Assembly: GCA_000165345.1 (NCBI GenBank)
Contig: CM000436.1
Span: 672,001-736,000, forward strand
Reading direction: 5' to 3'
DNA length: 64,000 nt
Notes under the pieces: model-generated
Databases searched by the model: none
Told to the model about the DNA's origin: nothing
The model's input: only the letters and a program-made list of their open reading frames with translations
In this document: positions 8,221 through 20,706 of the stretch, one piece after another
How positions within the stretch are numbered: position 1 is the stretch's first letter
How the letters are laid out: the number at the start of each line of letters is the position of its first letter
Made by a program: the position numbers and the translations under genes

Positions 8221-8528
8221 TGAACTGGCGGTACTTTTAATGAATATTTGGATAAAAAGAGTTGAGAGTATTTAGGTTAAAATAAGGCAGTAAGAACAAG
8301 GCTTATCTGATTTTTTTAAAAAAATATTGATATACTAATAAGATTAGACTACGCTTTGGCTGAATTACAGATTAGCCAAAACTCATCAGTTGTGTAATCG
8401 TATTAATTTAAAATAAAGCTGGATCATGAAAAGGCATTGTTAAGGTCTGTATGAAGTTCTTGCTATAAAGATACTATATTTTTAGGAAAGAACACGAATA
8501 GAACATTGAGAGTACGAAAAGAGTGAAA

Positions 8529-10415
8529 ATGTCTCCTATTACATTGAAGCAATATGTTTTGCTTAGTTTCGGGCTACTTTTGGGGCTTTTTGTACATTTA
8601 TTAAGTGTATACGATTTTTACTTTTACCACATAATCATGCACATAACTATAACCAAAGCGTCCACCATGATAATTACAAATGCAGGTTTATTGACTTTAT
8701 ACTTTTTGGGTAAGGTTATTTTGAATATGTTTGTGGGAAGATTAAGAGATATTGAACTGGAAGAAATCATTGATCAAGGGCGAATGTTTTTATTAGATAC
8801 AATCTTTTTTTTGTTATTTAGTAGCCCAACAATAGATAATATAGAAGTTGGAGCAATGGTCCTTTCAAGATACATTACTCTTATTTTGGTTTTAAAGCTT
8901 TTACATTTAATTTCCCATATTCGAATTAACCACATGTTTGAATTAGACAGACCAAAAACTACTGCAATTGTTAGAATGGCAGCTTTGCTTAATATTCTCC
9001 TGATTATTGACATAAGTTTAGTTTTCAAGTATTATGGCCTATTGTCAAAAGATTCTACTCTGAGGTTGTGGGTATTTTTCGAGAGTGTTTCTTTGCTTGT
9101 TTCATGTAGCACTTCTATTGGTAAATACCTCGTTCATGTTGTAGATTTGAAGCTCCAAGCCATTCAATTATTAATGAGACAAGAGGAGGATGGAACCCCT
9201 GAACAAGGAAATACTCATTCTTCGGGAATGCAAGCTCATAACTTTGTATGGTCGAATAAGAATGCTATATTATTTTATTTGGAGGTGTTTGGCGATATAT
9301 GCTCTTTAATTACTTACCTTCTCTTCATTATTCTCTTCCTTGTGCTAAATCCTTCCAGAATTCCATTATATATTATGGGAGATATCTTCCACGTCTTAAA
9401 AGCTTTGTACAGCAAGCTATCATCATTCAGGAGATATAGAAAGCTCACAAAAAATATTGAAACCAGACTTCAGGAAGCTACACTTGAAGAGATTGAGAGA
9501 ATTGATACTTGTATTGTTTGTAGGGACACTTTGTATATTGGCTCAAAAAAGATTCCTTGCGGTCATGTATTCCATCTGGATTGTCTAAAATCTTGGTTTA
9601 TTCAACAGCAAACTTGTCCAATATGTAGGGCTCCCATAACTATCAGAGATGAAGAGCCTGAACATTCAGCAACTACTGCAGAAGAAGATAACAACTCTCC
9701 ACAAATACCAGAGGACCAGGATGAAACTAATGATATTAAAGATCCCACTTCTTCAGACCAAGCGAAACCCAACATCAATTCAGAGCCTACTAGTGCACCA
9801 TCATCTTCAGCGTTTAATTCAAATGAATCCGGGAGCTCAACTGATGTTAGCTCTGACAGTTTTAAGAAAATCTTCAAGAACTGGATAGTAAGTGAGCATA
9901 AAGCTAAACCTGTTGAAGAAACAACATCAACAAGAATGGCGAAGGACTTGAAAGAAACCAAATTTCAGATATCGAAACACCCTTTGTTTAAAAGCAAGCG
10001 TGATGACTTATATAGAAAGGTTTCAAAAGCTGCAAATAGAGGGGATCATATAAATAGCCTTCCTCCTCAGTTACTTTCACTACAACCTCAAATTTTACTA
10101 GAATTAAATAAAAATTTGGAACAGAGAACATTTGGAAGTGAATATGGAAGTCAAGAGTTTTCTGAAATGATGAGCAAAATGTATAAGAAAAATGCAGATA
10201 TTTGGTTGAATATGGTTAGCGAGCTCATCAAAGCTAAAGAACAAAATTGTATCCAACATTCGGTACCAATTGAACGAAAAAGCAGTATTCACATACAAGG
10301 AGAAAGTTTATCTAATATGTATGAAAGTAGTTCTAGGGCAGACCCCTTGAGAAATCTAATGGATGCTGTCAATAATCAGCTTAACGAAACAAAAAATATT
10401 AATAAGGCTGCTTGA
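8529..10415 (+). CDS. HRD1: ERAD E3 ubiquitin ligase, HRD1/synoviolin-like (multi-TM N-terminus plus RING-H2)
   Basis: The N-terminal half has about 6 hydrophobic helices. The RING-H2 at nt 9510-9626 reads CIVCRDTLYIGSKKIPCGHVFHLDCLKSWFIQQQTCPICRAPI, with the spacing and the W/QQ-TCP motif typical of HRD1. The C-terminus is low-complexity. The track start at 8523 is GTG, and the ATG is at 8529. Confidence 0.85.
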   Translation: MSPITLKQYVLLSFGLLLGLFVHLLSVYDFYFYHIIMHITITKASTMIITNAGLLTLYFLGKVILNMFVGRLRDIELEEIIDQGRMFLLDTIFFLLFSSPTIDNIEVGAMVLSRYITLILVLKLLHLISHIRINHMFELDRPKTTAIVRMAALLNILLIIDISLVFKYYGLLSKDSTLRLWVFFESVSLLVSCSTSIGKYLVHVVDLKLQAIQLLMRQEEDGTPEQGNTHSSGMQAHNFVWSNKNAILFYLEVFGDICSLITYLLFIILFLVLNPSRIPLYIMGDIFHVLKALYSKLSSFRRYRKLTKNIETRLQEATLEEIERIDTCIVCRDTLYIGSKKIPCGHVFHLDCLKSWFIQQQTCPICRAPITIRDEEPEHSATTAEEDNNSPQIPEDQDETNDIKDPTSSDQAKPNINSEPTSAPSSSAFNSNESGSSTDVSSDSFKKIFKNWIVSEHKAKPVEETTSTRMAKDLKETKFQISKHPLFKSKRDDLYRKVSKAANRGDHINSLPPQLLSLQPQILLELNKNLEQRTFGSEYGSQEFSEMMSKMYKKNADIWLNMVSELIKAKEQNCIQHSVPIERKSSIHIQGESLSNMYESSSRADPLRNLMDAVNNQLNETKNINKAA

Positions 10416-11823: not shown

Positions 11824-13140
11824 CTAATCAAAATAAATAGTCTCCAGCTCACTGATTATTCCCGAAACCCTATCAAATATCAGCTTTAGCTTATTACTTT
11901 TAGTTATTTCTTCGTGAAAGATGTTTTCCCTAGCCTCAATTGGAATATCTAACTTCCCAACTTTGTTGAAAATCTCTACGCCCACATTTATACAATCTGA
12001 GATCAAATTGCCTAAAATTGTCATCTGTGATACAGAACCTTCTCTAAATGTATAGACAAGGGTCCCAAACATTAAGGAGGATCTATTTTCTCCAAACTTT
12101 CTGTATGTGTGCCTGATCTTGCACTCCGTTAAAATTTTAGAAATCAGCTCGCACGGTACTCCGAGCCTTTCGCAATCAACTGAAACAAGATGTGTATCTG
12201 TTCCATCTCCAAGTAGAGGAATTCCTGAGTCAAGCATTGTCTGCGCTAGAACAGCAGAGTTATCAAGTGCTGCTGCTACAAACTCACTAGTTCGAGAAGT
12301 TAACATTCCTTGAATTTGGACAGCAAATGACCCAATTTGATGATTATGAGGGCCTCCTTGGAGGCCTGGAAATACTGCGGAGTTAACTTTCTGAAATAAT
12401 CCAGGATTTTTGCTGTTGTTCAACATCAAGAAGCCACCTTTAGGACCACCCAAACTGCTTTGAGTGTTAGAATAAATGATGTCGCAATATCTGTATGGAT
12501 TGTTGTCCTCCCTTCCATACCTATCAAATGATATCAAAAGTGCAATTTCGCTAATATCAGCGACTAAAAAGATTTTAAATTCATTGCAAATCTCACTAAG
12601 CAGTCTGTAGTCTATGAATAATGTTAATACATCGGATGGAACAAGTAACAACTTGGGCTTTAATATCTTACATTTCTCCCTCAGGTCAACTATATCAAAC
12701 CCCCTACCTTTTTTATCCAAATTATAATATTCAACTTGGTAATAATTTTCCAATACAGTGTCAGAATCACCCCTAATCCTCAAAATTCGATCCCCCTTAT
12801 TCAGTAATCCCATACAGATGGCCAACTCAGCATGGCTTCCACTATAACACTGGATATTAAATAGCCATTCGTCATTGCTTTTTTTGTCTAATTTTAGAAA
12901 TTGTTTTAATCTACTTGCGCAGAGCGTTTCTATCTTATCAATAACGTGTGTTCCACCATAATACCTTGTTCCAGGAAAACCCTCTGAATATTTGTTTGTA
13001 AGGATACTCCCAAGGACTTTTCTCGCAGCATTAATCATAACATTTTCCTTGGGGTGTAAGTTTAAATGAGAATTCTGAAAATCTTTTTCCTTATTAATAA
13101 TATTGAATAACTCTTGATCAGATTCAATTGTTGTATTCAT
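11824..13140 (-). CDS. SHMT-fold paralog lacking the PLP lysine (predicted pseudoenzyme or regulatory subunit)
   Basis: Clear SHMT family signatures are kept: LTNKYSEGFPGTRYYGGTHVIDKIETLC (nt 12952-12999 encode TNKYSEGFPGTRYYGG) and VNSAVFPGLQGGPHNH (FPGLQGGP = nt 12349-12372). The canonical TTTTHKTLRGPRGG is YSNTQSSLGGPKGG (Q227-S228 at nt 12457-12462 replace His-Lys). HGGHLTHG is replaced by RGDSDTVLENY. ADxAH is ADISE. The C-terminal substrate Arg (..G[LV]RLGT..) is ..SLMFGT... Confidence 0.85.
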   Translation of the reverse strand: MNTTIESDQELFNIINKEKDFQNSHLNLHPKENVMINAARKVLGSILTNKYSEGFPGTRYYGGTHVIDKIETLCASRLKQFLKLDKKSNDEWLFNIQCYSGSHAELAICMGLLNKGDRILRIRGDSDTVLENYYQVEYYNLDKKGRGFDIVDLREKCKILKPKLLLVPSDVLTLFIDYRLLSEICNEFKIFLVADISEIALLISFDRYGREDNNPYRYCDIIYSNTQSSLGGPKGGFLMLNNSKNPGLFQKVNSAVFPGLQGGPHNHQIGSFAVQIQGMLTSRTSEFVAAALDNSAVLAQTMLDSGIPLLGDGTDTHLVSVDCERLGVPCELISKILTECKIRHTYRKFGENRSSLMFGTLVYTFREGSVSQMTILGNLISDCINVGVEIFNKVGKLDIPIEARENIFHEEITKSNKLKLIFDRVSGIISELETIYFD

Positions 13141-13398
13141 ACCTAAATGATGACGAAATTAAGTTATTAATATCAAAGATACAGTCTGTTTAGTAATTTA
13201 TTTAAGATTCTTTTTTTTTGTTACTTATTTCTAAAAAAGTGCTCGCCCCCTTTATTTGATTAAATTTTTCCCCACATGCAAGCATGTTTAACAGTGTTAG
13301 TTTCATCGTATTTACATAAATAAAATACTTATATAAATTAATTAAAATAATGAATAATGTGGATGTAAAATAGAACCTCTTATTTTTAATTAATATAA

Positions 13399-14229
13399 TT
13401 AGAAAATGATTCTAAAAATAATTACTAATATTAGAAAAGCAGTTAAATAAAGAACTATTTTAGTTATTCTTCTCCTTCGATCTCTTTCAGAAATTACATT
13501 AATCTCGTGTAGTAGGTGAAAACTGTCTGTATTAATTTCTGTTTCCTTAATTTTATCTTGAAAAGTATCAATAGTAACTTGTTCAGAGGCAATCTCATTT
13601 AATAGAATATTCTGAATACTCATTAACTCTTTCGTGGACTCCTTTAATTTAATTAACTCTGCAAAACAATGATTGGTTAATATTGGGCAATAAATGAGTA
13701 AAATAAAACCAAACCTCTTCGTATAATAATGTCACTTACCTTGGTTTTGTTCAAATAAGAGTTGTTTTTCCAATTCTTTAAAATCTGGTAAAGGCATATA
13801 TTGGGAGGTATGGACGAAAGAAGAAACAGAAGAGACAGAGGTATTTGATAATGAATTCTTTTCTAATTGGTTTCTTAAACAATTATCAACTTCATATCTT
13901 TCTAAGGAGAAAATAGTCTGAAAATGAAATAATAGATTCTCAAATAACAGTTTATAATGAGGATTTATATTGTTTTCCTTTTCCAATAACATAATACAGT
14001 ACTTAAAAAGATGTTGAGTTTCTTTAATTTTGAGATCTCTCTCAATATAACAACTTTCATTGTTTAATGAGTTAATATTTTCTCCAAAGTTTAATTCTTT
14101 CAAGTAATCTATATTTTCCTTAACCTGCTTAAAACATTTGCAAACGATTTCGTCCATTCCTTCTTTAATTAGAGTACTTTTGAAATTTTCAAAGTCACTT
14201 TTCAATGACAAGCAATTACCATAATTCAT
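13399..14229 (-). CDS. Tail-anchored Qc-SNARE (syntaxin-6/8/Tlg1-like), two exons
   Basis: ORFs 13732..14229 and 13399..13623 join through an 81-nt intron to give ...LFEQNQ|ELIKLKESTKELMSIQNILLNEIASEQVTIDTFQDKIKETEINTDS...RRRRITKIVLYLTAFLILVIIFRIIF. E-x3-Q-x3-I-D-x-F-x3-I-x2-T matches the zero-layer region of Qc SNAREs (compare syntaxin 6 ELEEQAVMLEDFSHELEST). There is a single C-terminal TM anchor. Confidence 0.7.
13659..13739 (-). other. Intron (81 nt, phase 1)
   Basis: On the minus strand the donor is caa g|gtaagt (GT at 13739-13738) and the acceptor is ttgttttgcag| (AG at 13660-13659). The splice restores the frame into ORF 13399..13623 (G+AG = Glu, then LIKLKESTKELM). Confidence 0.7.
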
Positions 14230-14520
14230 TTCACAATTTAGATTTAGAGTAGTTCTTTTATTAATTACTTAAAGAATTTATTGCATTTTATTTCTTGTTT
14301 AATTTAATTATGAGTAATATAGCAATCTCTCCAAACATTCAAACTCTCCAATTCTGACTATCAGGTTTAAACACATACAAAATAGCCTGAAGGATTTCTA
14401 AAGTCTAAACTTGAATAACTTATCTAACTTAATCAGATTTTAACTTTTCTGACTTTTTCACTGGCTATCCATGTATTTTGTGAGGTACAGATAAATTTTG
14501 CGAGCTTAGAAAATGATGCT

Positions 14521-14530
14521 TTGGCGCCAA
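14521..14530. promoter_or_regulatory. Perfect palindromic E2F-like site TTGGCGCCAA in a divergent promoter
   Basis: Read directly at 14521-14530, in the 641-nt spacer between the divergent SNARE gene (ATG 14229, minus) and the acidic-protein gene (ATG 14871, plus). Confidence 0.45.
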
Positions 14531-14870
14531 TCGCTTTGCTAATACTGCATTTAGGAGTTGAAAAATTAAATAGTTAAAATTATTTAGACAAGAGCCTGTT
14601 GTTGAAGCTGAAAGGTATTTGATTATCTTAGACCGAATTTTCCTTTTCGTTCCTCTACAAATTACTGGAATAATAAGTCTGCATGCAATTTACATCTTTT
14701 GCGGGAACTGAAAGCAAAATTGTAGAAAAACAAAATTTACTGCTAAAAATAAGAATTAAACAAACTTCTCATTTTAAAGCACTAAAAGAATCAAATAGAG
14801 CGAACTGACCTACATAAATGTGTGTGCTTATTTATGAACCCCGAGTTTGAAAATCTATAAAATTAATCTT

Positions 14871-15290
14871 ATGGAAACAATGCAAAATTGGGAAATTATA
14901 GACGACTACGATATTGAGAAGGAAAATGAAAAGGTTAAAAATAGTGATATCTTATCAGATTTACTAAGTGATTATGAACTTGACAACAGCTTTATGAAAA
15001 AGGATATTAATCAGCAGCTTGAGGAAATTAATATATTGATTAAAGAAGTTAATCAAGAAAAGGTAGAATTATTGAATTCATTTCCATCTTGTTCATTAGC
15101 AATTATTAAGAGCTTAACCAGAGGTGATGAAATTGATGAAGAAAATATGGAGATTGATCAGATGTCACTCTCAAGCAGCGAGATCAACTCTAGCAATGAT
15201 TCACCTTTGTTTGAAACACGAGTAAATATCGACCTGCATCAGAGTCTTACGGACTCTCCAGGAAGCATGAATATATCAGACTTTCTTTAG
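14871..15290 (+). CDS. Small acidic hypothetical protein (139 aa)
   Basis: The track ORF begins at TTG (14847). The first ATG at 14871 gives METMQNWEIIDDYDIEKENEKV... The protein is D/E-rich with a predicted coiled segment. No family recognised. Confidence 0.5.
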   Translation: METMQNWEIIDDYDIEKENEKVKNSDILSDLLSDYELDNSFMKKDINQQLEEINILIKEVNQEKVELLNSFPSCSLAIIKSLTRGDEIDEENMEIDQMSLSSSEINSSNDSPLFETRVNIDLHQSLTDSPGSMNISDFL

Positions 15291-15358
15291 CCATGAAAAA
15301 AATGTAAATATTCAAAAGAAAGAAATTAACAATTCACAAACGAGAGTAAGCAAACGCA

Positions 15359-16696
15359 CTAATACTTATCTACGATAGAAACAAATTCAAACGATGAGGC
15401 AAACTTTCGCACTGTTTGCCTGATATTCTCTATTGCTGGAGAGGCCTTAATATTAGAAACAAACTCTGCAAGAGTCTCCCCATCCTTTTGAATATCTCGA
15501 GCAGTAGTTAAAACTTCTACAATTATCCTTGAAACGAATTTGAAATCATCCAACTCCATCCCTCTGCTCGCAAGGGCTGCAGTTCCAAGTCTGACGCCAC
15601 TGCAATTCATAGTTCTCCCATCACAAGGTAAAGAACTTCTACTTGTTGAAATTTCGCATACTTCTAGTGCTTTCTCAGCCTTAGCCCCAGAAATGTTCAA
15701 TGATCTTGTATCTATTAGAATTTTGTGGGAATCAGTTCCATTTGTAAGAATCTTGATTCCAGACTCCTCGAGCAATTTGCAAAGCAATTGAGAGCTTTCT
15801 AGCACTCTACTTGCATATTTAACCCAAGAAGCAGAAACTACTTGTTTCAGTTGGAAACAAAGGGCTGCAACTTGGTTGAAATGAATACTAGACTGAATTT
15901 CTTTAGAAACTGACTCATCAATCTTAACTCTGATCTTGGACTCTACGTCCTTTCTGTAAAATATTATTGCTGACCTTGGTCCTCTTAATGTCTTGTGAGA
16001 CGTTGTTGTAATGAAATCTGCGTAGTCTTTGGGTGACGGGTACTTCCCTGCAACCACCAAACCAGAGTAGTGAGCGATATCTACCATCAGGTAGGCCTTC
16101 ACTTTGTCGCAGATATCCCTAAACCTCTTAAAGTTGATCATTCTAGGATACCCACTAGCTCCTGCTATTATCATCTTTGGTCTAAATAGTATTGCATTTT
16201 CTTCCAACTTATCGTAATCTATCACTCCTTCTAAATCAGTTACATAAGGGAGTGACTCAAAATAGTGAGATGAACAGTTAACTCTCTTCAAATTTGTATA
16301 GTGTCCGTGAGTCAGGTGGCCTCCATGTTGTAATGACAATCCCATTATTCTATCATTAGGTTTTAATACTGCATTTAATACTGCAAAATTTGCAGGAGAG
16401 CCACTATGAGGCTTTACATTAGCACCCCATACTTCAGGATCTAGTCCATATGCTTTTAAGGCTCTTTCATTTGTGAGCTCTAATAGTTCTTGTGCAGAAG
16501 TTGAGTTTAATTCCATATTTTTATCATTATTAAACATTGAGAATGTACTTGACAAGCTGTCCAAGACTCCCTTCGATACAAAGTTTTCGGATGCTATCAT
16601 TTCTAGTCCATTAATCTGTCTATCATATTCTTCATTGATTAGCTCATACATAATGGGATCCAGCTCTTTTAATGATTTTTCCTGTAAAAATACCAT
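15359..16696 (-). CDS. SHMT: Serine hydroxymethyltransferase (PLP-binding core intact; trans-acting loops degenerate)
   Basis: Family signatures: GLEMIASENF, HSGSPANFAV, LQHGGHLTHG (nt ~16304-16327), MVDIAHYSGL, TTTSHKTLRGPR (Lys235 codon at 15992-15994) and CSGVRLGTAALASRG. However, the NKYSEG-PG-RYYGG loop is replaced by FSMFNNDKNMELNSTS (nt ~16499-16549), and VFPGLQGGPHNH is replaced by VSKEIQSSIHFN (nt ~15869-15913). Confidence 0.9.
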   Translation of the reverse strand: MVFLQEKSLKELDPIMYELINEEYDRQINGLEMIASENFVSKGVLDSLSSTFSMFNNDKNMELNSTSAQELLELTNERALKAYGLDPEVWGANVKPHSGSPANFAVLNAVLKPNDRIMGLSLQHGGHLTHGHYTNLKRVNCSSHYFESLPYVTDLEGVIDYDKLEENAILFRPKMIIAGASGYPRMINFKRFRDICDKVKAYLMVDIAHYSGLVVAGKYPSPKDYADFITTTSHKTLRGPRSAIIFYRKDVESKIRVKIDESVSKEIQSSIHFNQVAALCFQLKQVVSASWVKYASRVLESSQLLCKLLEESGIKILTNGTDSHKILIDTRSLNISGAKAEKALEVCEISTSRSSLPCDGRTMNCSGVRLGTAALASRGMELDDFKFVSRIIVEVLTTARDIQKDGETLAEFVSNIKASPAIENIRQTVRKFASSFEFVSIVDKY

Positions 16697-17104
16697 TTCT
16701 TAAGTGATTATTTATTACAGTTCTGTATTACACGGTCTTTATATTCCTAAATCTTTAGTAGCTTCACAAATTTTTATTTCTAGCGTTTAAACAAAGCTAT
16801 ATTCGAATTTCAACTTTGTTTTTTATATTTTGGTAATTGTGTTCAATTATTAAACTTTTTTGTCCAAATAAAGTACATGCGCCATGTGTGGGTAATTTAT
16901 CAGTAAATCGTTGAATGAATGCTAACCCAGAAATTTTTCTAATTTATAAAAATATTATTCTCTAAAAATTACTATGATCTCTGAATAAATTTCGCTCTTT
17001 AGATTTCTCAAGATAACTAGGACAGTACTAATCTACCAAAGATAGAATTTTATTACAAATCAATTATTATTGTCCTACTAGAAAAACCGGAAATGTATTG
17101 AAAA

Positions 17105-19977: not shown

Positions 19978-20706
19978 ATGCAATCTATAACGCATAGATT
20001 AGCAGACCAATTCAGAAGTGTGGTGGGAAACTTTATCCCAATTGACTGTTCCAACTCCAAATTTGAATCTGATGGATTTCTAACTCCTAAAGAATTTGTT
20101 GATTCTGGGGACTATTTGATTCTTCAATTCCCGAACTGGTTTTGGAGAAGCGCTTCTGAAGAATATATTGTGAGGTGGCTTCCTCAAAATAAGCAATATC
20201 TGCATATAGATAACGTACCATGTAGAAAGAGACTTGACTCTTCTAAACTTTGTATTTCAAAAAACTGTCTCGATATTACATCAGATAGTAAAGGAGATGA
20301 ATGGATTTTACCCACAAACGAAAATGTAGAAAAGCTCGGTAACATCAATATAAATGATGATGTCAGATATTATGACATTAGTGTTACATATGACAAATTC
20401 TTTCAAACCCCAAGAATATGGCTTTTTGGATACAATAAGGAGGGATATCCTTTAAGTACTGAGGAAATGGTTGAAGATATCATTAGCGATTACGCAACTA
20501 AAACAATCACACTAGATCCCCATCCATTTACGGGAATATTATGTGTGTCTATTCACCCTTGTAACCACTCAAGCTTGCTTAAAAAAATGGCCAAGAACCA
20601 TCCGCCGCACCTTTCAATAGTTATATTACTGAAATTCATTACTACTGTTATTCCATCAATTGAGTTAGACAATACAATAGATATCGATATTAAGTTTGAT
20701 ACATAG
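19978..20706 (+). CDS. ATG3: Autophagy E2-like enzyme ATG3
   Basis: The N-terminus SKFESDGFLTPKEFVDSGDYLILQFPNWFW, then RYYDISVTYDKFFQTPRIWLFGYNKEGYPLSTEEMVEDIISDYATKTITLDPHP, the catalytic HPC motif SIHPCNHS (Cys codon at 20560-20562) and LLKFITTVIPSIELD all align closely with ATG3 as recalled from yeast and human. Confidence 0.9.
   Translation: MQSITHRLADQFRSVVGNFIPIDCSNSKFESDGFLTPKEFVDSGDYLILQFPNWFWRSASEEYIVRWLPQNKQYLHIDNVPCRKRLDSSKLCISKNCLDITSDSKGDEWILPTNENVEKLGNININDDVRYYDISVTYDKFFQTPRIWLFGYNKEGYPLSTEEMVEDIISDYATKTITLDPHPFTGILCVSIHPCNHSSLLKKMAKNHPPHLSIVILLKFITTVIPSIELDNTIDIDIKFDT

Follow-up and report, generated by a model that had tools for sequence, protein, structure and literature searches.

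Reciprocal Loss of Active-Site Residues in Two Neighboring Serine Hydroxymethyltransferase Paralogs of Cryptosporidium: A Candidate Obligate Heterodimer with One Composite Active Site

The SHMT Locus of Cryptosporidium parvum

The folate enzyme serine hydroxymethyltransferase (SHMT) is a standard example of a homo-oligomer, and it serves as a drug target both in apicomplexans and in cancer. Two divergent SHMT paralogs, here called SHMT-A and SHMT-B, lie close together in a stretch of 64,000 nucleotides of the Cryptosporidium parvum genome (GenBank assembly GCA_000165345.1, contig CM000436.1, positions 672,001 to 736,000; the window). Each has lost active-site residues that the other has kept, and the two probably work as an obligate heterodimer. 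An earlier reading of the letters alone (the sequence-only reading) had placed both genes on the minus strand about 2.2 kb apart with two small genes between them. The open reading frames (ORFs) are located exactly there, and the gap of 2218 nt holds both small genes (Table 1).

The SHMT-A ORF encodes 445 amino acids and is 100% identical to the protein annotated as "cytosolic serine hydroxymethyl transferase" in C. parvum Iowa II. The SHMT-B ORF encodes 438 amino acids and is annotated in C. parvum as "mitochondrial serine hydroxymethyl transferase." Neither protein is extended at the N terminus relative to canonical SHMTs, and the termini therefore give no argument for separate compartments. 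Both belong to the Pfam family SHMT (PF00464), with 408.7 bits for SHMT-A and 252.3 bits for SHMT-B at a cut-off of 27. The best matches among solved structures are also SHMTs, namely human SHMT2 for SHMT-A (6e-105) and a Plasmodium SHMT for SHMT-B (1e-55). Identity to canonical enzymes is 34–45% for SHMT-A and 29–35% for SHMT-B. The two are each other's weakest matches, with 22–27% identity.

Cis and Trans Residues of the SHMT Active Site

The tight dimer of SHMT contains two active sites, each made of cis residues of one chain and two trans loops of the other. Trans loop 1 contributes Tyr55', Glu57', Tyr64', and Tyr65', and trans loop 2 contributes Phe257', Pro258', Gly262', and Gly263' (active-site positions are given in Escherichia coli numbering throughout, with the prefix Ec for ranges). 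The sequence-only reading had made this assignment, and the structure paper on Medicago SHMT3 bears it out (PMC5958214). In that enzyme His209, His292, Ser264, Asp289, Ser180, Ser182, His317, and Lys318 of the chain itself hold the ring, O3', N1, and phosphate of pyridoxal 5'-phosphate (PLP), and four residues from the partner chain of the tight dimer, Tyr134, Glu136, Gly354, and Gly355, touch PLP as well (PMC5958214). The substrate carboxylate is bound by Arg454 and Ser114 together with Tyr144 of the other chain, and contacts of the other subunit to the PLP phosphate or substrate include Tyr143 and Tyr144 (PMC5958214).

SHMT-A, SHMT-B, and their orthologs were aligned with E. coli GlyA (from the MG1655 genome) and canonical eukaryotic SHMTs. 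By motif position, the Medicago trans residues correspond to E. coli Tyr55, Glu57, Tyr64/65, and Gly262/263. The cis residues correspond to His126, His203, Ser175, Asp200, Ser97, Ser99, His228, Lys229, Arg363, and Ser35. The two-chain active site discussed below for SHMT-A and SHMT-B is taken from homologous SHMT structures (PMC5958214) and mapped by this alignment.

Reciprocal Retention in SHMT-A and SHMT-B

SHMT-A retains 18 of 19 cis positions and one of 11 trans positions (Fisher p = 4e-6). SHMT-B retains five of the 19 cis positions, and all 11 trans positions carry the canonical residue (Fisher p = 9e-5). The reciprocal pattern is far from chance. As a guard against cherry-picking, an unbiased scan took in every alignment column with at least 93% invariance across 68 canonical SHMTs, 123 in all. 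The residue is kept by both proteins in 34 columns, by SHMT-A only in 50, by SHMT-B only in 27, and by neither in 12. The 27 columns kept by SHMT-B alone cluster in Ec48-75 and Ec257-273.

The cis motifs ascribed to SHMT-A in the sequence-only reading (HSGSPAN, HGGHLTHG, DIAH, TTTSHKTLRGPR, and VRLGT) were all found in the protein. The retained positions are Ser35, Ser97-Gly98-Ser99, Leu121, Gly125, His126, Leu127, Ser175, Asp200, His203, Thr226, His228, Lys229, Arg235, Arg363, and Arg372. Lys229, His126, Ser175, Asp200, His203, His228, and Arg363 are present in all SHMT-A orthologs of named Cryptosporidium species. The two loop losses described for SHMT-A are equally real, with NKYSEGYPGxRYYGG replaced by SSTFSMFNNDKNMELNS and FPGLQGGPHN by ESVSKEIQSSIHFN. 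Trans loop 1 has changed by Tyr55Asn, Glu57Asp, Tyr64Met, and Tyr65Glu, and trans loop 2 by Phe257Ser, Pro258Lys, Gly259Glu, Gly262Ser, Gly263Ser, and Pro264Ile. Invariance across the 68 canonical SHMTs is 100% at Tyr55, Glu57, Tyr64, Tyr65, Gly262, and Gly263, and SHMT-A, which has neither NKYxEGxPGxRYYGG nor FPGxQGGP, lacks all six residues. In the alignment SHMT-A runs colinear with canonical SHMT from end to end, and the lost loops are thus not hidden elsewhere in the protein, a situation that the sequence-only reading had named as fatal to its proposal.

SHMT-B is the mirror image that had been described. It keeps TNKYSEGFPGTRYYGG and VFPGLQGGPHNH, HGGHLTHG is deleted, and DISE, SNTQSS, and LMFGT are present. 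The residues at Tyr55, Glu57, Tyr64/65, and Gly262/263 are all identical to the canonical consensus. On the cis side the loop with His126 is deleted, the residues at Ser35, Ser175, and Thr226 have changed, and His203Glu, His228Gln, Lys229Ser, and Arg363Met are found. No single chain, SHMT-A or SHMT-B, carries both the cis and the trans set; each paralog is without essential residues, and the losses are complementary. When the cis/trans mapping is applied, the elements kept by SHMT-A and SHMT-B fall in one shared pocket, and the degenerate elements fall in the symmetry-related pocket.

The folate loop of SHMT-A, SRSSLPCDGRTMNCSG, is modified from NKN to SRS and is nearly invariant within the A family (pairwise identity 0.93). 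In nearly all A orthologs this loop (residues 350–367, window 15596–15649) contains two Cys, LPCDGRTMNCSG; C. felis SHMT-A has Ser at the second. The Cys pair does not align with the redox-switch Cys pair of Plasmodium SHMT.

The structure of SHMT-A as predicted with AlphaFold2 has a predicted local distance difference test score (pLDDT) of 91.5, with dips at both degenerate loops and the lowest values at trans loop 1. The SHMT-B model has a pLDDT of 93.4, a predicted template modeling score (pTM) of 0.92, and a template modeling (TM) score of about 0.9 to solved SHMTs. Both proteins are thus predicted to fold confidently as SHMT.

Table 1. Features of the SHMT locus, in positions of the window
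Feature	Position	Strand	Remarks
SHMT-A	15359..16696	(-)	EAK89448 / CPATCC_004087; putative PLP-binding half, cis residues kept, trans loops lost
SHMT-A residues 49-67, SSTFSMFNNDKNMELNSTS	16496..16552	(-)	Degenerate, shortened remnant of trans loop 1 (Tyr55/Glu57/Tyr64/Tyr65)
SHMT-A residues 124-131, HGGHLTHG	16304..16327	(-)	Intact cis element; PLP-stacking His, backbone contacts to folate pterin
SHMT-A residues 230-241, TTTSHKTLRGPR	15974..16009	(-)	Intact; Schiff-base Lys235 (E. coli Lys229), equivalents of His228 and Arg235
SHMT-A residues 261-274, ESVSKEIQSSIHFN	15875..15916	(-)	Degenerate remnant of FPGxQGGPxxH (trans loop 2); Gly262/Gly263 to Ser-Ser
SHMT-A residues 350-372, STSRSSLPCDGRTMNCSG-VRLGT	15581..15649	(-)	Altered folate loop, then intact substrate-carboxylate Arg (E. 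coli Arg363)
SHMT-B	11824..13140	(-)	EAK89612 / CPATCC_004084; putative pseudoenzyme half, Schiff-base Lys absent, trans loops intact
SHMT-B residues 44-63, GSILTNKYSEGFPGTRYYGG	12952..13011	(-)	Intact trans loop 1 (equivalents of Tyr55, Glu57, Tyr64, Tyr65)
SHMT-B residues 121-132, RIRGDSDTVLEN	12745..12780	(-)	HGGHLTHG and following flap (~14 residues) deleted; variable among B orthologs
SHMT-B residues 195-198, DISE	12547..12558	(-)	Asp200 retained, His203 to Glu
SHMT-B residues 223-236, YSNTQSSLGGPKGG	12433..12474	(-)	Replaces TTTTHKxLRGPR; Thr226Asn, His228Gln, Lys229Ser
SHMT-B residues 254-267, SAVFPGLQGGPHNH	12340..12381	(-)	Intact trans loop 2 (equivalents of Phe257, Pro258, Gly262, Gly263)
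SHMT-B residues 356-360, LMFGT	12061..12075	(-)	Substrate Arg363 to Met; Arg still in C. muris B
Intergenic small gene 1	13399-14229	(-)	No Pfam match; probably spliced
Intergenic small gene 2	14847-15290	(+)	No Pfam match
HRD1/synoviolin-like RING E3 ligase	8523-10415	(+)	Ordinary neighbor, syntenic across the genus
ATG3	19978-20706	(+)	Ordinary neighbor, syntenic across the genus

Conservation within the Genus

The sequence-only reading had proposed a search of related genomes for both paralogs and their reciprocal substitutions, and these are conserved across the genus. The pattern is found in every ortholog of the named Cryptosporidium species and in several orthologs derived from SRA data, and it spans gastric species (C. 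muris, C. andersoni) to intestinal ones. The two paralogs are neighbors in C. parvum, C. ubiquitum, C. bovis, and C. muris, and both families occur in many further species. The gene order A, two small genes, B, with A and B on the same strand, is kept in C. muris, C. ubiquitum, and C. bovis and hence predates the split of gastric and intestinal species.

Purifying selection on both genes is strong, as measured by the ratio of nonsynonymous to synonymous substitution rates (dN/dS) in a comparison of C. parvum with C. ubiquitum. This ratio is 0.079 for SHMT-A and 0.097 for SHMT-B, as against 0.13–0.22 for four neighboring genes. Within the B family, trans loops 1 and 2 are the most conserved parts (pairwise identity 0.90 and 0.91), while the whole protein stands at 0.60 and the remnant of the HGGHLTHG region at 0.39. 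Within the A family the same two loops are the least conserved (0.55 and 0.66), with 0.69 overall and 0.81–0.95 for the cis motifs. Since SHMT-B is unable to bind PLP, the conservation of its trans loops is hard to explain unless they serve a partner.

Intermediate states have also been found. Gastric SHMT-A retains Tyr55 and Pro258-Gly259, and C. muris SHMT-B retains Arg363. Judged from these alignments, the losses are progressive and limited to the site predicted to be dead. The C. bovis assembly GCA_009768925.2 has a one-base frameshift in a T run (L004:7240-7250) that splits the SHMT-A frame, and the deposited annotation fuses SHMT-A with an upstream 883-aa gene into a 1263-aa product. This frameshift is most likely an assembly error.

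Relatives and Origin

Canonical orthologs with 51–56% identity to the cytosolic SHMT of Plasmodium (SHMTc) are present in Toxoplasma, Neospora, Besnoitia, Theileria, the gregarine Porospora, and Vitrella. The sequence-only reading had also asked whether a separate canonical SHMT exists in this genome. No canonical third Cryptosporidium SHMT was present among the best 120 matches to SHMT-A, SHMT-B, or Plasmodium SHMTc, which suggests, though not exhaustively, that Cryptosporidium has no canonical SHMT besides the two paralogs. A B-family profile run against 1.84 billion representative proteins matched Cryptosporidium B proteins with 856, 704, and 520 bits and the next protein with 263 bits. This drop from 520 to 263 bits indicates that the B family is specific to the genus.

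A neighbor-joining tree of 38 SHMTs did not resolve whether SHMT-A and SHMT-B stem from a duplication specific to Cryptosporidium. In this tree SHMT-B groups with PfSHMTm of Plasmodium, most likely through long-branch attraction. Orthology of SHMT-B to PfSHMTm was considered and rejected, with BLAST E values of 0.9 or worse and no trans loops in PfSHMTm. The literature searched contained no account of a Cryptosporidium SHMT heterodimer or of such a split for any SHMT, nor did it contain expression or proteomic data on either gene. The Cryptosporidium and SHMT matches that were examined concerned host SHMT2 or Plasmodium.

A Reciprocal SHMT Pair in a Bacterium

Among the weaker matches of the B-family profile search was a gene (P0486) of an uncultured bacterium, on a 104-kb metagenome contig with 37% guanine plus cytosine (ena:ERZ26050963:contig_3). 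It is the downstream member of two SHMT genes that overlap by 10 nt and together span L005:8766-11185, with the upstream gene at L005:8766-10010 and the downstream gene at L005:10001-11185. The upstream protein has 414 amino acids, is 50% identical to E. coli GlyA, and keeps all cis residues (including HGGHLTHG, TTTTHK, NKN, and Arg363), while Tyr55, Tyr65, Phe257, Pro258, Gly262, and Gly263 are lost. The downstream protein has 394 amino acids, is 40% identical to GlyA, and keeps TNKYAEGYPFKRYYGG and FPGLQGGP; it carries His126Phe, His203Val, His228Tyr, and Lys229Gly and has lost Arg363. On the 123 invariant columns, both proteins keep 40, only the upstream protein 48, only the downstream protein 20, and neither 15. 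All except five of the downstream-only columns lie within Ec48-72 and Ec257-264. Overlapping reading frames are typical for subunits of one complex. Because both members are of bacterial type, the pair points to convergence with the Cryptosporidium split, and on the evidence of these alignments it is independent support for a reciprocal division of SHMT. Relatives of the bacterial B-like gene in GTDB genomes and JGI metagenomes were canonical glyA only (33–53% identity), with no further tandem pairs.

P0486 is one of a few SHMT-like proteins among these weaker matches that keep the trans loops and have lost the Lys, and proteins with the trans loops kept and cis residues lost occur sporadically in other lineages. 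Two Papaver proteins labeled "SHMT2-like" (P0380 and P0382) have Lys229Arg and a deleted His126 with the trans loops kept. P0419 (L161) has Lys229Cys and P0455 (L006/L007) has lost cis residues, and both keep the trans loops; no partner gene was seen adjoining either. P0348 of Ichthyophthirius retains Lys and the trans loops and carries Ser35Phe, His203Asp, and Arg363His.

Neighboring Genes and Upstream Elements

The position and orientation of the two small intergenic genes are kept in C. muris, C. ubiquitum, and C. bovis. Of the two, the gene on the minus strand is represented in the window by ORFs of 165 and 74 amino acids, its annotated orthologs have a single product of about 252 amino acids, and it appears to be spliced. 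Both genes are given as context and no role in the SHMT system is claimed for them. GCATGT-type elements occur upstream of SHMT-A (16870–16890, ATGGCGCATGT) and upstream of SHMT-B (13270–13290, TTGCATGTGGGG, with a G-rich box). They recall apicomplexan AP2-type motifs and are too short and weak to serve as evidence of co-regulation.

Proposed Heterodimer and Alternative Explanations

We consider it probable that SHMT-A and SHMT-B pair as an obligate A:B heterodimer in which one active site is composite and the other is dead. In such a dimer SHMT-A would give the cis half of the working site, that is, Lys235 for the Schiff base, the Asp and His residues, the Ser-Gly-Ser phosphate loop, the carboxylate Arg, and the modified folate loop. 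SHMT-B would give the trans half and so complete one working composite site. The other site, made of the cis half of SHMT-B and the trans loops of SHMT-A, would be dead on both sides and in decay. Physical pairing of the two proteins and the restriction of activity to the A:B pair are what the complementary residues suggest, and the product would be 5,10-methylene-tetrahydrofolate feeding the DHFR-TS of the parasite.

Several points weigh against this interpretation. The sequence-only reading had held that an A:B dimer would rebuild exactly one complete site. That view stands for the complementary cis and trans residues and fails at the folate loop, where Asn345 and Asn347, invariant in the canonical sample, are Ser in SHMT-A and absent from SHMT-B. 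With both residues changed in both proteins, folate binding must differ. The objection is softened by an otherwise canonical SHMT of Theileria orientalis, which has ISKSTLPGD and thus the same S-x-S pattern (S-K-S) as SHMT-A, and an altered yet functional folate site in SHMT-A is plausible from this comparison. Another otherwise canonical SHMT, P0039, also has Ser at the folate-binding Asn347, as in the T. orientalis protein (P0297). The absence of a third SHMT, in turn, rests on the lists of the best 120 matches. In addition, DHFR-TS has been reported as dispensable in C. parvum (PMC8612570), and the demand for SHMT activity may therefore be low. Finally, the assembly GCA_051169045.1, labeled C. 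serpentis, contains an A-like SHMT (L160:8001-9680, P0012) with Lys229Met (ATG) and Ser35Ala. This gene has a 113-aa in-frame insertion at trans loop 1 and is 55% identical to C. andersoni A; no B-like ORF was found within about 5–8 kb, and its flanks are unrelated to the C. parvum/C. muris locus. If the record is real, catalysis is not retained everywhere.

An unlikely alternative is that SHMT-A is self-sufficient and functions as a homodimer (A:A) whose trans loops have diverged and whose activity is lower or altered. SHMT-B would then be a pseudoenzyme serving some purpose other than catalysis, for instance regulation, scaffolding, or RNA binding, as has been suggested for further dead SHMT paralogs. 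All cis residues of SHMT-A, Lys included, are indeed present, Asp occupies the Glu57 position in all A orthologs, gastric A has Tyr55, and dead SHMT paralogs are known elsewhere (PfSHMTm and the Lys-less SHMT-like proteins of Papaver and other contigs). Such a homodimer, however, would lack six residues that are 100% invariant in canonical SHMTs and that contact the PLP phosphate and substrate. Mutation of the equivalent trans residues in bacterial or mammalian SHMT abolishes or cripples tetrahydrofolate-dependent activity. The trans loops of SHMT-A are moreover its fastest-evolving parts, and self-sufficiency leaves unexplained both the 0.90 identity of the trans loops in a PLP-incompetent SHMT-B and the appearance of the same two halves as overlapping genes in a bacterium. 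A loss of SHMT function altogether, with the proteins, singly or paired, recruited to another PLP reaction or a non-enzymatic role and the thymidylate cycle dispensable, would account for the folate-loop Asn residues lost from both, the reported dispensability of DHFR-TS, and the C. serpentis-labeled gene without Lys. It appears very unlikely, as the contacts to PLP, the substrate carboxylate, and the para-aminobenzoate part of folate are all kept across the pair, the folate loop of SHMT-A is nearly invariant with its S-x-S shared by Theileria, and both genes are strongly constrained.

Slightly more doubtful still is that SHMT-B acts as an allosteric activator or stabilizer of the prozyme type, in a heteromer with SHMT-A to which it donates no catalytic residues. 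AdoMetDC-prozyme (PMC5201418) and the hypothesis of a PfSHMTc/PfSHMTm heterotetramer (PMC3014972) are precedents for this. SHMT sites form only inside the tight dimer (PMC5958214), and so a tetramer of A2 and B2 would leave both SHMT-A sites without trans residues. The parts of SHMT-B that are conserved, furthermore, are catalytic trans residues and not merely interface surfaces, which argues for a direct contribution. An artifact of annotation, assembly, or alignment, to which the poly-T frameshift in C. bovis SHMT-A might have pointed, is effectively refuted by intact ORFs and identical substitutions in more than 10 independent Cryptosporidium species or assemblies and by the colinearity of SHMT-A with canonical SHMT throughout.

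Taken together, the heterodimer with a single composite site is the reading that we prefer. With somewhat less assurance, we lean towards the wider view that SHMT exists in Cryptosporidium only as this obligate heterodimer of reciprocally degenerate paralogs, and that the same split has at least one further, independent origin, in a bacterium where the genes overlap. Complementary degeneration, by subfunctionalization or constructive neutral evolution, would then have occurred repeatedly in nature within one active site.

If the heterodimer is real and is the only SHMT of Cryptosporidium, the "cytosolic SHMT" expressed alone for assays or inhibitor screens would be a dead or misleading protein. 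The asymmetric dimer would offer parasite-specific features, namely the modified folate loop and the degenerate second pocket; the therapeutic value is tempered by the reported dispensability of the thymidylate cycle in C. parvum. The pair would also be a natural example of a duplicated homodimer locked into a heteromer by complementary loss. Its intermediate stages would be seen in the comparison of gastric with intestinal species, and the bacterial pair would be a second, independent instance.

Comparison with Known Systems

The canonical SHMT/GlyA homodimers (E. coli GlyA, human SHMT1/2, Plasmodium SHMTc, Medicago SHMT3) share with SHMT-A and SHMT-B the Pfam family, the fold, and, as we assume, the two-chain architecture of the site. 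A canonical chain holds both cis and trans elements, and the dimer has two identical sites, whereas each Cryptosporidium chain holds one half, so that at most one site per dimer can be formed. The folate-loop Asn residues are also changed in the Cryptosporidium pair.

Engineered or interallelic complementation has been obtained with mutant heterodimers of ornithine decarboxylase and thymidylate synthase, in which two differently dead subunits restore one site. These are laboratory constructs or alleles, in contrast to the fixed, genus-wide paralogs described here. The AdoMetDC-prozyme mechanism is allosteric relief of autoinhibition, and the dead subunit donates no catalytic residues, in which it differs from the proposed SHMT pair. 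Activation of a parasite enzyme by a dead paralog has been reported for this trypanosome system (PMC5201418).

Within the apicomplexans, 16 of the 21 active-site residues have been described as missing from PfSHMTm, and its assembly with PfSHMTc into a heterotetramer, along with the analogy to AdoMetDC-prozyme, has already been proposed (PMC3014972). The sequence-only reading had known of no description of the arrangement for SHMT and had drawn the prozyme parallel itself. The search found no earlier account of the Cryptosporidium pair or of a split SHMT, yet the idea of a dead paralog partnering SHMT had been raised for PfSHMTm (PMC3014972). Both cases concern an apicomplexan SHMT paralog without most of its active-site residues. 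PfSHMTc is complete and active alone, and PfSHMTm is devoid of both trans loops as well as cis residues (PMC3014972), which makes complementation impossible. SHMT-B is not a fully dead paralog of this type, as it keeps both trans loops and is related to PfSHMTm only at the level of the family, with no specific relatedness.

The closest mechanistic precedents would be the trypanosomatid deoxyhypusine synthase (DHS) pair DHSc/DHSp and, within PLP fold-type I, serine palmitoyltransferase LCB1/LCB2. In trypanosomatids an impaired DHSc and a dead DHSp form a heteromer that is the functional enzyme, with activity increased about 3000-fold, and the active sites of human DHS are located at the interface between monomers (PMC3663545). 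Fold and chemistry differ from SHMT (DHS is NAD-dependent, not PLP-dependent), and the DHS pair has been demonstrated biochemically, whereas the SHMT pair is inferred from sequence. A later structure of trypanosomatid DHS is said to reveal shared active-site complementation between both pseudoenzyme paralogs. Serine palmitoyltransferase LCB1/LCB2 (SPTLC1/SPTLC2) is a heterodimer of PLP fold-type I paralogs, in which one subunit is without the PLP-binding Lys and a single site lies at the interface. Its family is a different one, the alpha-oxoamine synthases; the enzyme is membrane-bound, and its arrangement is ancient among eukaryotes. Overall, by analogy with these systems, SHMT-A and SHMT-B are likely to represent a variant of the pseudoenzyme complementation known from trypanosomatid DHS and serine palmitoyltransferase.

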